Of a stretch of DNA of 60,532 nt, positions 1 to 59,900 are shown in pieces. The DNA is from Acidobacteriota bacterium (lineage in GTDB: Bacteria; Acidobacteriota; Thermoanaerobaculia; Thermoanaerobaculales; Sulfomarinibacteraceae), in contig JAJDNH010000166.1 of assembly GCA_022340775.1 (NCBI GenBank), forward strand, positions 1 through 60,532, given 5' to 3'. A model generated the notes under the pieces. It was not told where the DNA came from. It did no database searches and worked only from the letters and a program-made list of their open reading frames with translations. The translations under genes and the position numbers were made by a program. The stretch's first letter is position 1; every line of letters begins with the position of its first letter.

Positions 1-71
1 GTCGCGCGGGGGTTCCGTATCACTCCTATGAGGGCTTCCCAGTGCTTCGGCTCCTCAAGCTGGGGGTGGAG

Positions 72-435
72 ATGAAGAGGAAACACCTGTTTGTTTTCTA
101 CTGCTCGCTGCTCGTGCCCATGAGTGTCCTAGCCCACATCATTCACTCGCAATCTACTGCGACCGGCGATACGCCAGCCACCGCCGTGCTCTTCGCGTCT
201 CGGTGTCCTCAACATACCGTCAAGTATGCCTGCGGCACCTCGATGCTCAGAACCCAGCGCTGACAAGCGTCTCGCCGGTCTCGCTACGATCGCTCATGAA
301 TAATGCGGGCCAGCCGGCATCGGAGCGGGGCGCGCCACCGGCCTGCCTGCGCTCGGCGTGCTTCTCGGCATAGCCATCGGTATTGAGGTCTCCTACCTTC
401 TGTTGCGCTTCACCTCCCCCGGCGACACCCCGTAG
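72..435 (+). pseudogene. Small two-TM membrane protein gene (60 aa when reconstructed) interrupted by a MITE-like element
   Basis: Deleting 133-313 joins 72-132 to 314-435 in frame: MKRKHLFVFYCSLLVPMSVLAGIGAGRATGLPALGVLLGIAIGIEVSYLLLRFTSPGDTP*; G-rich RBS-like sequence before ATG72. Confidence 0.7.
129..313 (+). mobile_element. ~185-bp palindromic MITE-like element, copy 1
   Basis: Imperfect terminal inverted repeats CTAGCCCACATCATTCA / TGAATAATGCGGGCCAG; central CATAC..GTATG hairpin; homologous to 41066-41251 and 54536-54718. Confidence 0.85.
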
Positions 436-605
436 CCCCGACCGGGCCTCACCTGGGCCAGGGCTGCAGCGCCTCCCCGCCCTTGCTACAGTTGCTGTGC
501 AGGAAACCTGGACCGAATGAGCGAGCACAAGAACGAACCCGACCGGTGCTCGAAACGGCAGGGAGCGGAACCGCCCGAGCCGGAGGGCCTCGTGAGGCGA
601 GCGGA

Positions 606-1880
606 ATGAGAGCCGATTCAAGACATGAAACGGTTTCCTCCGGCCTGCCTCCCCGGCGAGCGGGGTTGAGCACCCGATCCATTGCCGCGGTCATCCTCTT
701 CCTGGGCCTCGTCTACGTCGGGGTCGTGTTCGGCTTCGGATACGGGGGCCATGTGAGCGAGACGATGCTCTCGCTGCAGGACGCCCGGCAGTACCAGGCC
801 GTCGCCGACTGGCTCGTGAACGAGCAGCCGACACGGGCGACGCTCATCCGACCGCTCCTCTACCCCGTCGTGCTCGCCCTGATCGAGCCTGCCGCAGGAA
901 TCCGCGGCGTCTGGATCGTGCAGGCTCTGTTCTGGCTCGCGGGCGGGTTGCTGCTCTTCAGCGCGCTCCGGACCTTCACGCAGCGGACGGGGGCGGCCGT
1001 CGTCGGGTTGCTGCTCTACGCCACCAACCTGACCCTGGTCCTGCTCACTCTGCATGCGATGCCCGAGACACTCGTCACCTTCGGACTCACGGCCTACGTC
1101 TGGGTGGTCGCCGCCCGCCGCCGCCTCGGGACCGACCGCGCGCTCCTGATCCTGCTCGCGCTGTCGGCGGTCCTGGCCGCGACCAAGCCCTCGTACGTCG
1201 GCCTGTTCCTCGTCATCGCCGCCATCGAGGTCGTACGTCTCGTCCGGCTGTCCTCGTCGCGCGCCACACGTGCGGCCTGGATCGTGGCGGCCTGTCTCCC
1301 GGTGCTCCTCCAGCTCGGGATCATGGGGATCCGCCACGGTGTGCTCGGCCTGTCGACGATCGGCGGGGCGGCGGTCCGGCGCTACTCGGGGGCCGAGCTC
1401 TACCGTGAGCTCCACGGCGGGTCGCTCGGCGAAGCGCGAGCGCAGGTCGAGCCGATGAGCAGCGGGCAGCTGGCGAGCATGGCTCTCGATGCGCCGGGCA
1501 CGACCGTCCGCGTCTGGCTGCGGCTGGTGCGCGAGAACATCAGTGCAAGGTCCCCGGTCACGGACATCCCGGCAGGTCATCCCGCCCTTTCCGGGCTCAT
1601 GCAGAGGATCAACGCGGGCTACCTCGTCCTGCACCTGGTCATGATCCTCCCGACCCTCGCCCTGCTGGCCATCCTCGTCAGACGACGGCGCGTCCAGGAG
1701 CTGACCCGGCTCGCGCTGCTCGCCGTTCCGGTCGTCTGCGTGATGGCGACCGCGGGCCTGACCTTCATGCAGGGGGACCGGATCGTGCTGCCGTCTTTGC
1801 CGGTGTGGATCAGCCTCTACGCCGTGGTCCTCGCCTCCTGGTGGAGAATGTTCTCGCGCAGAGGCGACTCGAGCCGGTAG
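606..1880 (+). CDS. Multi-pass membrane protein, GT-C (ArnT/PMT-like) glycosyltransferase-like; start uncertain
   Basis: Many TM segments; D-x-x-x-Y loop, RPLLYP, PETL, TKP and C-terminal DR motifs typical of GT-C folds. Confidence 0.6.
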   Translation: MRADSRHETVSSGLPPRRAGLSTRSIAAVILFLGLVYVGVVFGFGYGGHVSETMLSLQDARQYQAVADWLVNEQPTRATLIRPLLYPVVLALIEPAAGIRGVWIVQALFWLAGGLLLFSALRTFTQRTGAAVVGLLLYATNLTLVLLTLHAMPETLVTFGLTAYVWVVAARRRLGTDRALLILLALSAVLAATKPSYVGLFLVIAAIEVVRLVRLSSSRATRAAWIVAACLPVLLQLGIMGIRHGVLGLSTIGGAAVRRYSGAELYRELHGGSLGEARAQVEPMSSGQLASMALDAPGTTVRVWLRLVRENISARSPVTDIPAGHPALSGLMQRINAGYLVLHLVMILPTLALLAILVRRRRVQELTRLALLAVPVVCVMATAGLTFMQGDRIVLPSLPVWISLYAVVLASWWRMFSRRGDSSR

Positions 1881-1912
1881 CAGCCCACCCGCGCAGCAAG
1901 GTGGGAATAGTG

Positions 1913-1938
1913 AGGGACCGGGGCGAGCCCCGGTCCCT
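1913..1938. terminator. GC hairpin between convergent genes
   Basis: AGGGACCGGGGC-GA-GCCCCGGTCCCT perfect inverted repeat. Confidence 0.7.
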
Positions 1939-1964
1939 GTTGCGATCTCGAAAGGTGCGGGCGC

Positions 1965-4244
1965 TCACTCCTTCGCGGGCTGGTTCTTCTGGAGGTCCCT
2001 GGCCTGCCGGATCATGTCGCCCAGCTCCTGCACCCGCGGGTCGCCGGCCAGGTGGCCCCGCAGCCGATCCAGGTGGCTCAACACCTCGCCGAGGGTATCG
2101 TGCTTGGCCCAGAAGGAGTGCTTGAGGATCTCCGCGAACTCGCCGACCACGGACGCGAGCTGCAACCGGGACGAAGCGTCGTCCCAGCTGCGCGCCAGGT
2201 CACGGGCCCGCAGGCGGCGCTCGATCTCGACGAAGTCCTCACGGCCCGTGGGCCGATAGCGCAGCCGCAGAGTCGCCACCAGGCGGTGACCCGGGATGCG
2301 CGGCTTCAGCTTGACCTCGTACAGCGCGGTCACGGTCTGCCCGGCGCCGACCTCGCCGGCGTCCACGGTCGGGTCGCGGAACCTGTTGTCGGCGATGTCG
2401 CGGTTCTCGTAGCCGAGCAGGCGCCAGCGCTCGACCGTCTTGGGGTCGAACTCGACCTGGGAGCGCGCGTCGTGGGCGATGGTCAGGAGGGTCCCAGTCA
2501 GCTCCTCGACGAAGATCCGGTGGGCCTCCTCGAAGTCGTCGACGTAGGCGTAGCGACCGTCGCCGGTGTCGGCCAGGCGCTCCATGAGGGTGTCGTTGTA
2601 GTTGCCCATGCCGAAGCCAACGGTGGTCAGCTCGACGCCCTTGGCGGCGTCCTGACGGATCCGCTCGAGGATGGAGTCGGCGCTCGTATTCCCCACGTTT
2701 GCCACGCCGTCGGAGCACAGAATGACGCGGACGATCGACTTCCGGGATGCCTCGCTCTCTTCGGAGCCGTCGCGGTACTGCTCCGCCATCCGGTAGGCCA
2801 GGACCAGCCCCTGCTCGGCGTTGGTCGAGCCGCCGGGCCGGAGGCGGTCGATGGCCTGCCGGATCGCCTCGTGATCGTGTGTCGGCTCGAGCAGCACCCG
2901 CCCCTGGGAGCCGTACACCACCAGGCCGACCCGATCGTCGGGGCGGAGCTGGTCGAGCAGGGCCTCGAGGGCGCGCTTGACCAGCCCGAGGCGGTTCTCG
3001 CGGGCCATCGAGCCCGACACGTCAACGGTGAAGATCAGCAGGGCGGGCGGGCGGGCGGAGGCGTCGACCTCGCGTGCGGCGATGCCGAAGCGCAGGATGT
3101 AGGAGCGCTCCCGGTCGCCGAACGGGTCGGGGGCGCCCTCGGCGGACAGGCGGAAGTCGTTGCGGCGCGGCGCCGGGTCGCCGTAATCGAAGGCGTTGAT
3201 GAACTCCTCGACGCGGATCGCCGAGGGCGGCGGCAGGTGGCCGTCGTGCAGGTAGCGGCGCGTGATGGTGTAGGAGCCCGTGTCGACGTCGAGGCCGAAG
3301 GTTGAGAGACGGTCGTCCTCGGTGTCGACGAACGGGTTGACGCCCGCGGAGCTGAAGAAGACATCGCCGTACGGCTGGTCGTTGGGCTCGGTGGTGCCGC
3401 CGGTGGAGGGCGGTACGGGCTGAGCGTTTCCGACTGCAACCTCGGAGTAGAAGGCGGGCTGCCCTTTTGCTTTCTCTTGGGGCACCGTCTGGGGGCTCAG
3501 CGTCGCGAGAGTAGGAGGTGTCGGCACCACGCCGGACACCACGACCTCTTCTTTGAACGCCGACTTCAGGGTCACGTCGACGCTCTCGTTCTTCTTCCCC
3601 ACCTCGAGGTCGCGGCGCTGCACGGTCTGGTAGCCCGGCAAGGAGACGTCCGCCCGGTAGCGGCCCGGCTCGAGGTTGTTGACGCTCACCTTGCCCTCGG
3701 CGTCGGTCATCTTGGACTGCTCCTTCGGCATCTCCGGGGAGGAAAGGACGACGGTCGCACCGGGCAGAGGCCTCTTCCCCACGTCGCTCACTTGCAGGGT
3801 CAGGCCGCCGACTGCCTTGGAGGTTGCTGCCGGCGTCGACCGCGCGGGCTTGACCGGCTCTACGTCTGCTGTCTCATGGCCCTGTCCGACCGGCACTCGC
3901 GAAGCCGTCGGAGTGTCAGCGGGCTGTGCGGACCCTGCCTCCTGAGGAGTCGGTACGGGCGCCGGCAGCTGCTGCGGGCGCACATGGATCGGCCTCAGGG
4001 TCTTCTCACCGGGACCCGTCGGGCCCATCTTCCAGGTCACGACGCCGGTCAGGGCGAGCAGGAGGACGGCGGCGGCCGCCGCCCACCACTGGTAGCGTAT
4101 GCCCCGGCGGGGGCGGAAGGCGCCGTTCTTGTCGGCGTCCAGGTCTTCGGGGATCTCCTCGATGATCCGCTTTGTGAGCCCTTCCGGGGGCTCGGGCACG
4201 GAGATGTCTCGGAGCCGGCGCTCGATGTCGTCGGTGCGTTTCAT
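1965..4244 (-). CDS. YfbK-like VWA-domain protein with N-terminal anti-sigma-like segment, TM helix, carboxypeptidase-regulatory-like Ig domain and DUF3520-like C-terminus
   Basis: STFGLDVDTGSY..VRVEEFIN-type motif, MIDAS DVSGSM, LCSDG, RLLGYENR; ATG4244 overlaps the sigma stop (ATGA). Confidence 0.85.
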   Translation of the reverse strand: MKRTDDIERRLRDISVPEPPEGLTKRIIEEIPEDLDADKNGAFRPRRGIRYQWWAAAAAVLLLALTGVVTWKMGPTGPGEKTLRPIHVRPQQLPAPVPTPQEAGSAQPADTPTASRVPVGQGHETADVEPVKPARSTPAATSKAVGGLTLQVSDVGKRPLPGATVVLSSPEMPKEQSKMTDAEGKVSVNNLEPGRYRADVSLPGYQTVQRRDLEVGKKNESVDVTLKSAFKEEVVVSGVVPTPPTLATLSPQTVPQEKAKGQPAFYSEVAVGNAQPVPPSTGGTTEPNDQPYGDVFFSSAGVNPFVDTEDDRLSTFGLDVDTGSYTITRRYLHDGHLPPPSAIRVEEFINAFDYGDPAPRRNDFRLSAEGAPDPFGDRERSYILRFGIAAREVDASARPPALLIFTVDVSGSMARENRLGLVKRALEALLDQLRPDDRVGLVVYGSQGRVLLEPTHDHEAIRQAIDRLRPGGSTNAEQGLVLAYRMAEQYRDGSEESEASRKSIVRVILCSDGVANVGNTSADSILERIRQDAAKGVELTTVGFGMGNYNDTLMERLADTGDGRYAYVDDFEEAHRIFVEELTGTLLTIAHDARSQVEFDPKTVERWRLLGYENRDIADNRFRDPTVDAGEVGAGQTVTALYEVKLKPRIPGHRLVATLRLRYRPTGREDFVEIERRLRARDLARSWDDASSRLQLASVVGEFAEILKHSFWAKHDTLGEVLSHLDRLRGHLAGDPRVQELGDMIRQARDLQKNQPAKE

Positions 4245-41065: not shown

Positions 41066-41251
41066 TGAGTCCGGGTCGTCCATGAGCGATCGTAGCGAGA
41101 CCGGCGAGGCGTCTGTCAGCGCAGGGTTCTGAGCGTCGAGCTGCCGGAGGCATACCTGGAAGGTATGTTGAGGACAGCGAGACGAGAAGAACACGGCGAT
41201 GGCTGGCGTATCGCTGGTCGCAGTAGATCGCGAGTGAATGATCCGGGCTAG
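41066..41251 (-). mobile_element. ~185-bp palindromic MITE-like element, copy 2
   Basis: Reverse complement aligns along the full length with 129-313; terminal TAG is the stop codon of 41248-42678. Confidence 0.85.
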
Positions 41252-46294: not shown

Positions 46295-46407
46295 TGAGCC
46301 CGAGTCCTCCTGTCGTCACTCACTGCGAGCGGCGGCATGCCACCTAGTGCCGTGCCTTTCGCATCTCACGGGTCTCGCTACGATAGCCCGCGGACAATCC
46401 GGGTCAG
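46295..46407 (+). mobile_element. Internally deleted (113 bp) copy of the MITE-like element
   Basis: Both arms align to copy 1; 72 bp are missing between the two internal GCGTCTCG direct repeats. Confidence 0.7.
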
Positions 46408-46425
46408 CTGATTGGAGCGACGGCG

Positions 46426-47598
46426 CTACAGCTCTCGTAAGGCGGAGGCGACTGGGAGGCGGGCGGCGCGCAGGGCCGGCAGGAGGCCGCCGACCAGCCC
46501 CATCAGCAGCGCGAACGCCATGCCGGCGCCAAGCAGTCCCGGCGTGACCTTGAAGGCAAATGCCAGGTGGGAGAACGTCTGCCAGTTCATGGTCCCGGTG
46601 GTGTAGCCGTTGATCGGGAGCACCACCAGGCAGCCGAGCACGCCTCCAGCCAGTGCGATGAAGAGCGACTCGGCCACGAACGACGTCACCACCGAGGCGC
46701 TGCCAAAGCCGAGCGCGCGCAGGGTGGCGATCTCCCGGGACCGCGCCGCCACCGCCGAGTACATCGTGTTGAGGGCGCCAAACACCGCGCCGATCCCCAT
46801 CACCAGGGCGACCAGGAAGCCGAGGACCCGGATCAAGGTCGTCACCGTCTGCGACTGCTTGGCGTAGTAGGCACTCTCGCGGTCGACCTGCACCGTGAGC
46901 CTGGGGTCCGAGGTCAGCGCGTCCTTGAAATCGGTGAAGGCCGCAGATGAGGTGAGCCGAACCGTCGCCGACTGGAAGATGTTCTCCGGCCGCTTGTAGG
47001 TCTGGTTCAGCACCCTGGCATCACACCACAGCTCGGAGTCGAAGGCACTGCCGCCAGCGTCGAAGATGCCAACAACCTTCCACGTCTGGCCTCCGAACGC
47101 CACCGGCACTCCGAGTCCCAGCCCGCCGTAGATCTTCTCGGCGTTGCTGCCGACAACCAGCTCGGTCAGGCCGGAGTGGAAGAACCGGCCCTCGACGATC
47201 TTGACCTGCGGCCGAACCTGCAACACGGACGGTGACACGCCGCGTACCTGCACGTTGGCGTCGGTGCCCGTGCTCTTGAGTGGAAAGGGGGCAATCACCA
47301 CCACCTCGCCGCTGATCAAGGGAGCGCCCTCCGCCGTCCGCGCCACCTGCAGGGCGTCACCGATCACCTTCACCTGGTCGAGATCGACGACGCTCCCCAG
47401 CTCGGCCGCGGCTCCGGCCCGTCGGACGATGGCGTTGCGTGGCGAGCCCGAGGCTGCCAGCGTCGCCTGGAAACCTCTCGCCATCGACAGCATGGCCACG
47501 AAAACGCCGACCGTACCGGCGATGCCGAGCACCGCCACCAACGCCGCCGTCCACCGTGCTACCACGCTGCGGACGTTGTAGGACAGCGGGATCGCCAT
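46426..47598 (-). CDS. ABC transporter permease (MacB/FtsX family)
   Basis: R.REIATLRALGF, AESL, periplasmic domain. Confidence 0.92.
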   Translation of the reverse strand: MAIPLSYNVRSVVARWTAALVAVLGIAGTVGVFVAMLSMARGFQATLAASGSPRNAIVRRAGAAAELGSVVDLDQVKVIGDALQVARTAEGAPLISGEVVVIAPFPLKSTGTDANVQVRGVSPSVLQVRPQVKIVEGRFFHSGLTELVVGSNAEKIYGGLGLGVPVAFGGQTWKVVGIFDAGGSAFDSELWCDARVLNQTYKRPENIFQSATVRLTSSAAFTDFKDALTSDPRLTVQVDRESAYYAKQSQTVTTLIRVLGFLVALVMGIGAVFGALNTMYSAVAARSREIATLRALGFGSASVVTSFVAESLFIALAGGVLGCLVVLPINGYTTGTMNWQTFSHLAFAFKVTPGLLGAGMAFALLMGLVGGLLPALRAARLPVASALREL

Positions 47599-54391: not shown

Positions 54392-54476
54392 CAGATCACA
54401 GGTCCGCCATACCCCGGTCCCCTCACCAAGGACGGTCCCGCGGTGGGGCGGGGATGGGACTGAAGGCGGCAAACGG
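54392..54476 (+). repeat. REP-like intergenic repeat, copy B
   Basis: Homologous to 46101-46200. Confidence 0.7.
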
Positions 54477-54535
54477 CCACCCCGCCGCGGGCCAGGAAAC
54501 CAAGAAATCTCAAAGACTAGAGTCCGGAGAATCTT

Positions 54536-54718
54536 CGAGCCCGGGTTATCCGGGCGCGATCGTAGCGAGAGCGGCGAGACGCTTGTCAGGGCTGGGATCT
54601 GAGCGTCGAGCTGCCGGAGGCATACTCCCTGTATGTTGAGGACAGCGAGACGCAAAGAGCACGGCCCTGGCTGGCGTTTCGTCGCTCGCAGTAGTTCGGA
54701 ACGGATGAGCCGGGCTAA
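54536..54718 (-). mobile_element. ~185-bp palindromic MITE-like element, copy 3
   Basis: Aligns with 41066-41251; terminal TAG is the stop codon of 54715-55794. Confidence 0.85.
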
Positions 54719-56957: not shown

Positions 56958-59900
56958 CTACGGCTGGCCTTCGGGAGGATAGGCCGGCAGCAGCGGAGGA
57001 GGCGGCGGCAGCTCCATCGGGTGCGCCTTCAGCTTGTCCAGGATGACCTGGATCCCCTTCTCGAGCTGGACATCCTTGCCAGCCATCACGTCGCCCGGGA
57101 GGTTGTCGACCTCGATGTCCGGGTCAACGCCGTGGTTCTCGATCACCCACTGCGAGTGGAGTCCGTAGAGCGAGTCCTCCGGAATCGTGATGTAGCCGCC
57201 GTCTAGGAGCGGCCAGTAGCCGCGGATGCCGCGAACACCGCCCCAGGTTCTCAGCCCAATCACCGGACCGAGCCCGTAGTGCTTGAAGTAGTACGGGAAG
57301 ATATCCCCGTCGGAAGCCGAGTAGTGGTTGTCCAGGCACACCATGTACCCGTGCATCACCTGCTCGGGAATCTTGAACCGCTGACGCTCGCGGTTGGTCG
57401 CCATGCCGACCAGCACACGGCGCAGGCGCTCGAGAACGATCTGATCGATCTCGCCGCCACCGTTCCAACGCACGTCCACGATCAGGCCCTGCTTCTGGGT
57501 CTGGGGGTAGAACTGACTGATGAACTGCTCCATGCCGACGTCTTCCATATCCGACAGGTACAGGTAGCCGATCTTGCCGCCCGACGCTTTGCTGACCAGG
57601 TCACGGTTGTGGTCGATCCACGCCGCCAGCCTCAGGTTGAGCTCGTCGCCGATCGGCTTGACGGTGACCTGCCGCCGGTTCGTGCCCTTGGCGTCATCCG
57701 CGACGGTCAGCGTCACCGTACGGTGGAGTGTGCTGACGAAGAGACTGTATGGGTTCGTCGGAGCCTCGAGCTCTCGCCCGTCGACAGCGAGCAGGAAGTC
57801 GCCCTGTTTGACGTCGACACCGGGCTCGGTGAGCGGAGAGCGCAGCTCCTCGCGGGAGTTGTCGCCGGCGTATATCTTCTGGAAGTAGTACCGGCCCGAG
57901 CTCCGGTCGAGGGCGAAGTCCACCCCGAGCAGCCCGGTCGGAACGTCCGGGGTCTTGAACCTGTCGCCGCCGCCGACGTAGGTGTGGGAGTTGTGCAGCT
58001 CGCCGATGGCCTCGCCGATAAGGTAGTTCAGATCCTCGCGGCACGCCATCTTGGGGAGGAGCTTCTCGTACTTGGTGCGCACCGCGTCCCAATCGACGCC
58101 GTTCATCTTGGGGTTGAAAAAGAAGTCACGTTCGAGACGCCAGGCCTCGTGGAACATCTCTTTCCACTCCTGGACGGGGTCGATCTGAACACGCATGCCT
58201 GAGAGGTCGAGCTCGTGGGTTTCGGCCTTTCTCCTGGCGGGGTTCTTGTCCGGGCGCGACTCTGCGATGGTGTACGTCTTCTTGTGCGCGTACAGGACGC
58301 TGTTCCCGTCGGCGCTCAGCACGTAGGCGTCGACCGGCTCGGCAAGAACGTGGTCCTTGCGGTCCTTCATCTCGAAGACATGGAGCTGGGGTTGCTCGCC
58401 GGCCAGCGGCTTTGCCATCGTCCGGATGGGAACGGTCCGGTAGTAGACGCGACCCTCGGCCGCAGCCAGCTCGTCGATGTTGCCCGACGGGATCGGAAGC
58501 GGCACAACCCGCTGCATCAGACCGTCGAGGTCGATGCGGATGGGAGCGATCGCACCCGGTTTCCAGGTTTCCTGCTCCTTTACCTTCGCAGCCTCCGGCG
58601 CCCCCTCATCCGAACGCGGTGCGAACGGCGACGCCTCGTCCTTGCGCAGGGTCGCCACGTATACCCCGGCCATCTTCAACGTCGCGACGTTGAACTCGCT
58701 CTGGCTCCAGACCGGGTTAGGGTGGCGGTCCGAGGCGAAGTACAGGTACTTGCCGTCCGGGCTGAACACCGGATCGTAGTCGTTGCTCATGGTGCCACTG
58801 ACGACGGTGGACCTGCCGTCCTTCACGCTGTAGAGGTAGATCCGCCCCATGTAGGTCGAAGCGTCGTCATCCGAGCCCATGTCCTCGGTTCCGGCCTTGG
58901 AGTAGGCCAGCCAGAGGCCGTCGGGCGACCAGCTGAAGTGATGGACCTCCTCGTGCTTGTCCTGGTCCACCCGAACCAGCTTGCGGTCCTTGATGGTCAG
59001 GATCCACAGCACGTGGTCGCTGTCGGAGAAGGCCACCCTGGTGCTGTCCGGCGACCATACCGGGCCGTAGAGGTAGCCGGCCTTGCGGTCGGTCAGGATG
59101 GTCTCGGCGCCCGAGCCGTCGGCCGGACGGATCGCGATCTGCGCCTGGCCCCTCCGATCGGTCGCATACGCCACCCAGGCGCCGTCGGGCGACCAGGCGG
59201 GGTACATCTCGCGCGCATTCGACGTCCGGGTCAGGTCGCGCGTGTTGCCATGCTTGGCGGGCACCGTGAACACGTCACCGCGCGCTCCGAACAGGGCGCG
59301 CTTGCCGTTGGGCGACAGCTCCATGGAGTGAATCGTCTTGGCGGCGGACGCCCACCGCGGGCGAGTCCGCACGCCGTCGGTCGGCACCGTCACCTCGAGC
59401 TTGTGGAGCTTCTCGGAGGGCAGGTCGATGACGTACAGCGAGCCACCGTCCTGGAACACGATCCCGGAGTCGCCGAGGCTCGGCCAGTCCACATCGTAGT
59501 CCTTGAAGTGGGTCAGCTGGCGGAAGCTCTTGCCGTCGAGGTCGTAGGCCCAGATATTGAGCCGCTTCTCCGGCCCCCGGTCAGACGCGAAGTAGATCGT
59601 GTTGTGGTACCACATGGGGTCGGTGTCCGTGCCCTTCCACGTGGTCACCCGCTCGGCCTTGTGAGTCTTGAAGTCATAGATCCAGATGTCCTGCGCGAGG
59701 CCGCCGCGGTAGGACTTCCAAGTCCTGAAGTTGCGGAAGATACGATTGTAGGCAATCTTCGTCCCGTCTGGGCTGTAGGATGTCATCCCACCCTTCGGAA
59801 CTGGGAGCTGCGTCGGCAGGCCGCCGTTCGCAGGAACCAGGAACAACCGTCCGAACCACGAGTTGAAGGTGTCTCGGCGCGACAGCATGAGGACGTTCTT

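Follow-up and report, generated by a model that had tools for sequence, protein, structure and literature searches.

A preference of IS630 for CTAG is reportedly announced in the title of a 1991 paper by Tenzen and Ohtsubo. Elements of the IS630 family insert at TA with a 2-bp duplication, and IS630 itself prefers the TA within CTAG, as outlined in a portion of PMC2170065. The repeat unit of pneumococcus (RUP) is thought to be mobilised by IS630-Spn1 and can inactivate genes by landing inside them, as stated in an excerpt of PMC2229807; the orientation of ERIC is described in the same excerpted article (citing De Gregorio 2005) as deciding its effect on the upstream transcript.

Here we analyzed a repeat of uncultured salt-marsh Acidobacteriota, in which it is abundant, and one copy that splits a small gene. 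The stretch of DNA analyzed (60,532 nucleotides, hereafter the window) is the start of contig C241 of an assembly of 3.83 Mb, 251 contigs and 66.6% G+C (G000). It was compared with one other species of the same genus (G001), with a member of another genus (G022) and with further relatives. By our reading, to which we assign a probability of about 0.85, positions 132-310 represent a non-autonomous fold-back mobile repeat, and its ordinary insertion knocked out the gene of a conserved 60-aa membrane protein. Coordinates of the features are listed in Table 1.

Table 1. Features of the window, with strand and the evidence or remark that goes with each.
Feature	Position	Strand	Basis or remark
Conserved leader 5' of the small gene; contig start	1..71	+	Divergence from G001 at 4 of 71 bases
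5' portion of the interrupted gene, codons 1-20, with codon 21 (GCC) across the junction	72..131	+	Frame and homology
Left CTAG, the target site, with TA at 130-131	129..132	.	Empty-site contig of run X5; family consensus (C/T)TAG
Fold-back repeat body, 179 bases under the TA reading	132..310	+	nhmmer profile positions 2-183, score 190
TGA within the repeat, ending the broken frame after 63 residues	261..263	+	Frame translation
CA in place of the second TA of a duplication, one mismatch	311..312	.	Letters of the window
3' portion of the interrupted gene, ending in TAG 433-435	313..435	+	P0002; no stop or frameshift accumulated
Second full copy of the repeat	41069..41250	-	TAG 41250-41248 is the stop of the upstream 707-codon frame, which ends at -3
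Repeat relative, short or degenerate, with end pieces only	46296..46426	+	Profile positions 2-73 and 139-183, E 2e-4 to 4e-4
Third full copy of the repeat	54539..54717	-	TAG 54717-54715 is the stop of the upstream 642-codon frame, which ends at -3

The ATG at position 72 opens a frame that encodes 21 native residues, then enters the repeat and ends at the TGA of 261-263, giving a product of 63 aa (P0001), 42 of which are encoded by the repeat. A second frame, from 316 to the TAG at 433-435, encodes 39 residues (P0002). When 133-313 (181 bp) was deleted by script, the two frames were rejoined into 60 codons and a stop, and the product was equal to the intact G001 protein at 55 of 60 residues. 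The insert lies between a left-hand CTAG (129-132) and a right-hand CCAG (310-313). With AGCC found at each junction (131-134 and 312-315), several cuts of 181 bases have the same outcome, and 133-313, as delimited in the preliminary description, is a register equivalent to the 132-310 body. The 22 N-terminal residues are identical to those of a protein from a large collection (P0006, see below), and the intact G001 protein used as query matches window 72-194. The 3' part is 95% identical to residues 21-60 of the G001 protein, and the absence of decay in this half fits a recent insertion. Downstream, a 465-aa open frame (window 483-1880) encodes a multi-pass membrane protein that adjoins the small gene as a conserved pair only in G001; the genes neighbouring the small gene are without conservation beyond the genus. 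Scanning of window 1-700 for promoters and terminators found none. In annotation, the interrupted small gene is best labelled a pseudogene.

The site was found empty in two relatives. With a 2-kb query against 41 related genomes, window 1-133 matched G001:C96:2575-2707 and window 313-838 matched C96:2706-3254; the flanks abut in G001, where an intact ATG-to-TAG frame of 60 codons is present (P0003). At the focal CTAG, G001 reads CTGG without an insert, so that the TA is absent there. Public DNA was compared with window 1-700 by use of the Logan contigs of four runs (X1, X2, X3 and X5). In a 921-base contig of the marine-sediment run X5, window base 131 is joined to 313, with 181 bases skipped and 3 letters that fit either side, and we infer that this contig retains CTAG at the focal site. 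The 60-aa protein P0006 is known from a single 921-base Logan contig, probably the same one. An 886-base contig in the salt-marsh runs X1 and X3 has the G001-type allele. Since natural empty sites exist, the 60-codon reconstruction is far beyond chance.

Presence and absence at one site differ between relatives at two further places. Locus L025 of G001 is filled and the orthologous site on C117 of G000 is empty, with a base-precise junction (TTAG-flank versus TTAG-element-CTAG-flank). Window 54536-54717 is filled in G000 and empty in G001, where the orthologue of the upstream gene has the stop TAA. Taken together, these comparisons of sequence support the view that the repeat is mobile, or recently was. 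Its mobility had been proposed in the preliminary description, together with element ends and a search of relatives for an empty site; such sites turned up in G001 and in the 921-base contig of X5, filled and empty sites occur in both directions between G000 and G001, and the ends are now defined to within the shared AGCC. A filled site with two empty counterparts provides base-level proof of recent movement and fixes both the ends and the target word.

Divergence around the insertion is mosaic. Compared with G001 (L002:1441-1623), window 72-435 has 11 differences in the 60 bases of its first 20 codons and 5 in the 120 bases of the 3' half, with codons 24-56 identical; compared with the X5 contig, the pattern is reversed (6 of 131 bases in the left flank, then 14 of 123), each Fisher test giving p of about 0.05-0.06. 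This could be a recombination patch ending at the insertion or a contig mixing two strains. In G001, a repeat copy with about 66 extra tip bases (G001:C96:1769-2022; L002:564-817) lies about 620 bases upstream of the intact small gene, and the G000 region that matches it falls beyond the contig start.

The gene that is split belongs to a rare family. A P0003 search of 77 family genomes (G000 included) gave matches in 8, and uninterrupted homologues of full or near-full length (60-68 aa) were detected in 6 of the 76 other genomes (G001, G016, G074, G079, G085 and G086). All six start with ATG, and in most of them a GGAG-type ribosome-binding site precedes it. Within the G000 assembly the same search returned no second intact copy, only the two halves and a weak 29-residue match elsewhere. 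When a seven-member profile was run against 1.84 billion proteins, 17 cluster representatives were retrieved at E<=1e-3 (12 at E<=1e-10), 11 of which are 60-64 aa long. Ten of the 15 codon differences from G001 are synonymous. The protein has two hydrophobic stretches (17-residue Kyte-Doolittle means up to 1.94 and 2.11), and Pfam matched no family in the small protein, the truncated product or the 465-aa downstream frame. Judged by these homologues, the split gene is a real conserved gene of a rare family, mostly of 60 aa. Thus, the reconstruction of a 60-aa protein with two transmembrane segments in the preliminary description was borne out, as homologues in relatives span both halves. The truncated product would retain the first helix and lose the second.

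The repeat that interrupts this gene has features of a miniature inverted-repeat (MITE-type) element, being about 180 bases long, present in many copies, devoid of a transposase gene and bounded by inverted ends. Thirty long copies were found in G000 by blastn, and a profile of 29 gave 150 nhmmer hits on both strands, 31 of them full length. The focal copy is 95% identical to G001:C26:10851-11035. Matches numbered 42 in G001 (80-95% identity) and 10 in G022 (82-87%), those in other genera were near 70% identity, and the 2-kb query containing the element matched 20 of the 41 related genomes. At the site of the second full copy in the window (41069..41250), G001 has unrelated sequence and a TGA stop. 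In a derived form of about 459 bases, a fixed internal position is occupied by a module of about 277 bases (in G000, C69:36997-37455, C111:8870-9328, C70:6114-6572 and C135:6995-7453); in G001, this module is found next to other copies as well (left flank of L038). Other derived forms are of about 112 bases, without the tip, and distant relatives are of about 137 bases. On the basis of these forms, the repeats look modular.

Several further features of individual copies were observed. A GC-rich subfamily has CCCGGGTCATCCG ends followed by a shared pyrimidine-rich stretch, CT-N-GA-R-GA-W-TCTC..., as at window 54470-54538 (minus strand) and C29:4130-4182; by the sharing of this right flank, some subfamily copies have spread as a larger composite. 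In the right arm, an ATG-to-TAA frame of 25 codons (window 226-303 in the focal copy) is seen by eye in both subfamilies and is probably not coding, since changes are not concentrated at third positions. Also kept in the right arm is an outward-facing CTGACA, 19-base spacer and TACGAT (window 260-290), which was not flagged by the promoter scan. At C125:11870-12051 the left flank is AGAG, not CTAG, and an upstream 239-codon frame reads 27 bases into the repeat, where it stops at a TGA made by a C-to-T change; removal by script gives a junction-spanning frame (53 and 667 codons), and the copy may have affected a second gene. When all 31 full copies were excised in silico, no other clear split gene was detected; frames cross the junction after excision at C125 and C200 and may be mere upstream extensions.

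Alignment of the copies gave (C/T)TAG-CCCGG at the left end and CCGGGC-T-N-G at the right end. The terminal inverted repeats are GCCCGG... and ...CCGGGC, with columns 4-17 and 171-184 about 91% paired among 40 copies. The focal copy has GCCCAC at its left end compared to GCCCG(C/G) in the family, and many of the closest family members read GGGC-TA-G at the position of its CA (311..312). Five copies (L022, L025, L028, C135 and C230) have TTAG on the left and CTAG on the right; the outer right C thus closes the element and pairs with the G that comes after the left TA. Duplication of a 4-bp CTAG is refuted by these copies and by the TTAG of the empty L025 site in G000. The preliminary description had read the flanks of the focal copy as a 4-bp or a TA-type 2-bp duplication with one mismatch; the former did not hold, and the latter fits, as does a TAG duplication with one mismatch or insertion 3' of TAG with no duplication. 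Three readings therefore remain: TA may be duplicated around a perfectly symmetric GCCCGG...CCGGGC, TAG may be duplicated, or the element may insert 3' of TAG and duplicate nothing. Insertion at TA with a 2-bp duplication is compatible with Y-TA-[G...C]-TA-G, the consensus of the family. The L025/C117 pair agrees with each of the three, and at the focal site one T-to-C change is needed for either duplication and none for insertion 3' of TAG. Three pairs of empty TAA and filled TAG sites had been considered as proof of TA duplication and were dropped, since the right junctions of L021 and L028 read TAG and those pre-insertion sites were thus already TAG. A MITE of the IS5-family type was also rejected, because the target is not repeated directly over 4 bp on both sides; searches of G000, G001 and G022 for DUF772 and of G000 for DDE_Tnp_1 gave no match. 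MITEPye1/IS1182, to which 4-bp repeats are ascribed in an excerpt of PMC11578231, does not fit.

The target word is rare in G000: from base composition, 11,820 CTAG and 5,883 TTAG would be expected, whereas 1,248 and 567, respectively, are present. Because (C/T)TAG is rare, few insertions fall inside genes, and stop codons are common landing places. The position of genes relative to the repeat was analyzed by use of long open frames, defined as those with 70 or more codons and a third-position G+C of 0.72 or higher. By this approach, 15 of the 31 full copies in G000 had an open frame ending exactly in the stop just before the left-end CCCGG (these 15 frames being of at least 130 codons with third-position G+C of at least 0.74), and three further frames ended within 5 bases of the left end. 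At the right end, one comparable frame (C200) and two weaker ones (C229 and C47, third-position G+C 0.68) were detected. The left-to-right comparison of 15 versus 2 gives a binomial p of 0.002. A left frame at -3 was found at 10 of 30 loci in G001, with 9 more ending 5-8 bases before and zero at the right end; among 10 loci of G022, 3 had such a frame on the left and 1 had one on the right. These counts are not independent, because G000 and G001 have some orthologous sites in common. The bias is also present at palindromic CTAG targets (6 left and 1 right in G000), and target asymmetry alone is thus not its cause. The TAG stops of many genes belong jointly to the gene and the repeat. We think that the single orientation arises from co-transcription with the upstream gene, in which one orientation only would be tolerated or useful.

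Aligned with its own reverse complement, the element shows a 67% match across 188 bases (E 5e-15). Folded as DNA, the focal copy reaches -32.7 kcal/mol (z -1.47), and 15 of 200 shuffles were as stable, which is not significant. Thus, the hairpin of the preliminary description stands as to symmetry and not as to unusual stability of the focal copy. RNAalifold of 40 copies from six genera gave a fold-back of 32 pairs with 93.3% of cells paired. Changes on both sides were detected in 17 pairs (103 cells), a level reached by 0 of 500 shuffles and compared to 6-16 cells in slid controls. The stretches between the helices are long, nearly invariant and different in the two arms. A hand count of the long-range helices gave 36 C-A pairs versus 28 G-T pairs; as the two are about equal, there is no one-strand signature. 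Compensatory change in a palindrome can also arise when both ends follow the same transposase or when the template is switched from one arm to the other, and by itself does not prove an RNA function. The one-orientation docking on TAG, the compensated fold-back and the conserved unpaired stretches that differ between the arms are the grounds for a possible, although doubtful, reading of the repeat as a mobile structured 3'-end RNA module (a stabiliser, processing site, terminator or outward promoter) that is spread by some enzyme. If this were true, such a system would have misfired in placing a copy within the small gene. In an extreme form, which we regard as scarcely credible, the focal copy is skipped or cut out and the protein is still made. 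The orientation rule and the conserved fold make the family a good case in which to ask whether such repeats act as transferable 3'-end RNA signals.

The history that we favor for the locus is an ordinary insertion. The family would insert at the rare word (C/T)TAG, which in a GC-rich genome is mostly a TAG stop after a pyrimidine, and most copies would thus be harmless, lying directly behind a gene whose stop is rebuilt. In the G000 lineage, the small gene would have contained an out-of-frame CTAG (GTC CTA GCC) in which a copy landed, shifting the frame and replacing the second helix by 42 unrelated residues. The outcome would be a plain knock-out of a conserved 60-aa membrane protein of two helices, with the insert staying in the gene and no removal at the DNA or RNA level.

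Two other explanations of the split gene were weighed against this insertion, and we consider each very improbable. The insert might be removed in the cell, so that the 60-aa protein would still be made, whether the DNA is excised precisely, the hairpin is processed in the RNA or ribosomes hop from one GCC codon to its identical counterpart (132-134 and 313-315); removal at the DNA or RNA level had been raised as a speculation in the preliminary description. The same AGCC at both junctions and the pairing of the arms speak for it, as does a 3' half that is free of stop codons and frameshifts and differs from G001 at only 5 of 120 bases, but an intact 3' half is equally expected after recent insertion. 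The length of the insert, 181 bases, is not a multiple of 3 and is far below that of group I or group II introns; an Rfam scan of window 1-1200 with E up to 1 gave one chance-level snoRNA hit and no intron or ribozyme. The ends of the focal copy have drifted at one or two positions (CCCAC compared to CCCG(C/G), and CA, not TA, in the right flank), and the other 30 full copies, most of which lie outside genes, give no hint of a removal function. Known ribosome-hopping sites, such as that of phage T4 gene 60, have a stop codon after the take-off codon, and none follows the would-be take-off codon here. Alternatively, the repeat might have been wrongly threaded, as an assembly artefact, into a metagenome-assembled contig near its end. 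The contig starts only 129 bases before the repeat, the two flanks differ in their closest relative, and no contig crosses the filled junctions in X1, X2, X3 or X5, where the repeat collapses to depths of about 130 to 3,000. Against such an artefact, the flanks together make up a single gene that is interrupted at one point, a consensus target word of the family, where the gene and the repeat have only about 7 bases in common, which would be too few for a false assembly path; and if the contig were a chimera of two strains, both of them would have to carry the insertion.

As to the enzyme that moves the family, we tentatively favor, at somewhat less than even odds, a trans-acting DDE transposase of the IS630/Tc1-mariner type that would recognize GCCCGG...CCGGGC and duplicate the TA of (C/T)TAG. 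This estimate is based on the symmetric ends, the preference of IS630 for TA in CTAG and the precedent of RUP. Two IS630-type genes are present in G000 (C135 and C237). The IS630-type IS on C135 (about 57180-58440; L064:855-2112) lies in the TA of a CTAG, with TA on both sides, and this CTAG holds the TAG stop of an upstream frame, a putative ATP-synthase epsilon gene. It is thus a full-size element with a landing habit like that of the repeat, but with different ends: those of the C135 and C237 elements (GTACACGTATTCG... and CAGTTACTTAGTGCTC) both differ from the ends of the repeat. The single DDE_3-family element of G013 also has ends that give no match to the repeat. DDE_3 was not found in G001, G022, G007, G016, G017 or G002, mostly incomplete assemblies, and the repeat or its relatives are present in five of these (G001, G022, G007, G017 and G002). 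Among the transposase loci examined in these incomplete assemblies, there was no autonomous IS with the same ends. The end pattern TAGCCCGNANNANTC had 10 matches in five relatives, and the sole inverted pair was a 181-base element in G007. Larger elements between inverted solo ends (C33:13324-15652 and C26:18534-23615) were rejected as partners, since reading of their translations showed ordinary genes of housekeeping type without a transposase; the stop codons of these genes are where short left-arm modules begin. An IS4-like transposase beside a copy on G022:C72 looks like a neighbour and not a partner, and its contig ends before the far end. A symmetric DDE mechanism leaves unexplained that nearly all copies turn the same end toward the upstream gene.

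That single orientation would be natural for a strand-specific mechanism, in which a tyrosine (HUH/Y1) transposase moves the family as single-stranded DNA and inserts it 3' of the (C/T)TAG tag without duplication, the insert then being exactly 133-313. REP/REPIN elements move in this manner by means of RAYTs, and so do palindromic elements derived from IS200/IS605. This route needs no mutation at the focal site, also fits the L025/C117 pair and recalls the GTAG-tagged REPs, for which a TAG-ended tag beside a stop-supplying palindrome is a hallmark in the excerpted text of PMC3733652. Three Y1_Tnp genes are present in G000, but their inverted ends (GGTGCCAGGCTT...) are unrelated to those of the repeat and none of them adjoins a copy, nor does any of 20 further Y1 loci in five relatives. 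The tag is C/T-TAG and not GTAG, the unit is of 180 bases and not 20-40, the C-A pairs (36) are about as many as the G-T pairs (28) and so carry no one-strand signature, and the bias persists at palindromic CTAG targets. We thus regard the tyrosine route as unlikely. The Y1_Tnp (IS200-like) genes themselves, of about 340 aa (C207:597-1649, C229:7749-8768 and C55:3045-3347), have inverted ends with repeated GGTGCC motifs (GGTGCCAGGCTT...) and resemble the TIR-associated tyrosine transposases of Acidobacteria described in part of PMC3733652 (Di Nocera et al.).

Compared to known systems, the repeat is like RUP, in the excerpted account of the latter, in being a small, non-coding, multi-copy element with inverted ends and TA insertion. 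The ends of RUP match a known IS, whereas no such partner was found for the repeat, which also differs in its compensated fold-back of 180 bases and in its single orientation behind stop codons. With the GTAG-tagged REP elements and their inverted dimers (REPINs), which RAYT tyrosine transposases mobilise, as presented in a portion of PMC3733652, it shares a palindrome with a TAG-ended edge tag that supplies stop codons, mostly downstream of genes and occasionally inside them. By contrast to these, the tag of the repeat is CTAG/TTAG, its length is about 180 compared to 20-40 bases, and no Y1 gene was flanked by the repeat in 23 loci examined. ERIC of enterobacteria and Correia/NEMIS of Neisseria, as presented in an excerpt of PMC2229807, are likewise miniature elements of imperfect palindromes, 100-160 bases in length, that are co-transcribed with their neighbours; they have no sequence relation to the repeat, the start of which is fixed on a stop codon with one orientation predominant. 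The Rickettsia palindromic elements (RPE) resemble the focal copy in being palindromic repeats inside protein-coding genes, according to excerpts of PMC2229807 and PMC3733652. RPE are in frame and leave the host protein functional, whereas the 181-base insert shifts the frame and truncates the product. Thus, an element that seeks stop codons can still kill a gene where its rare target word falls inside a reading frame.
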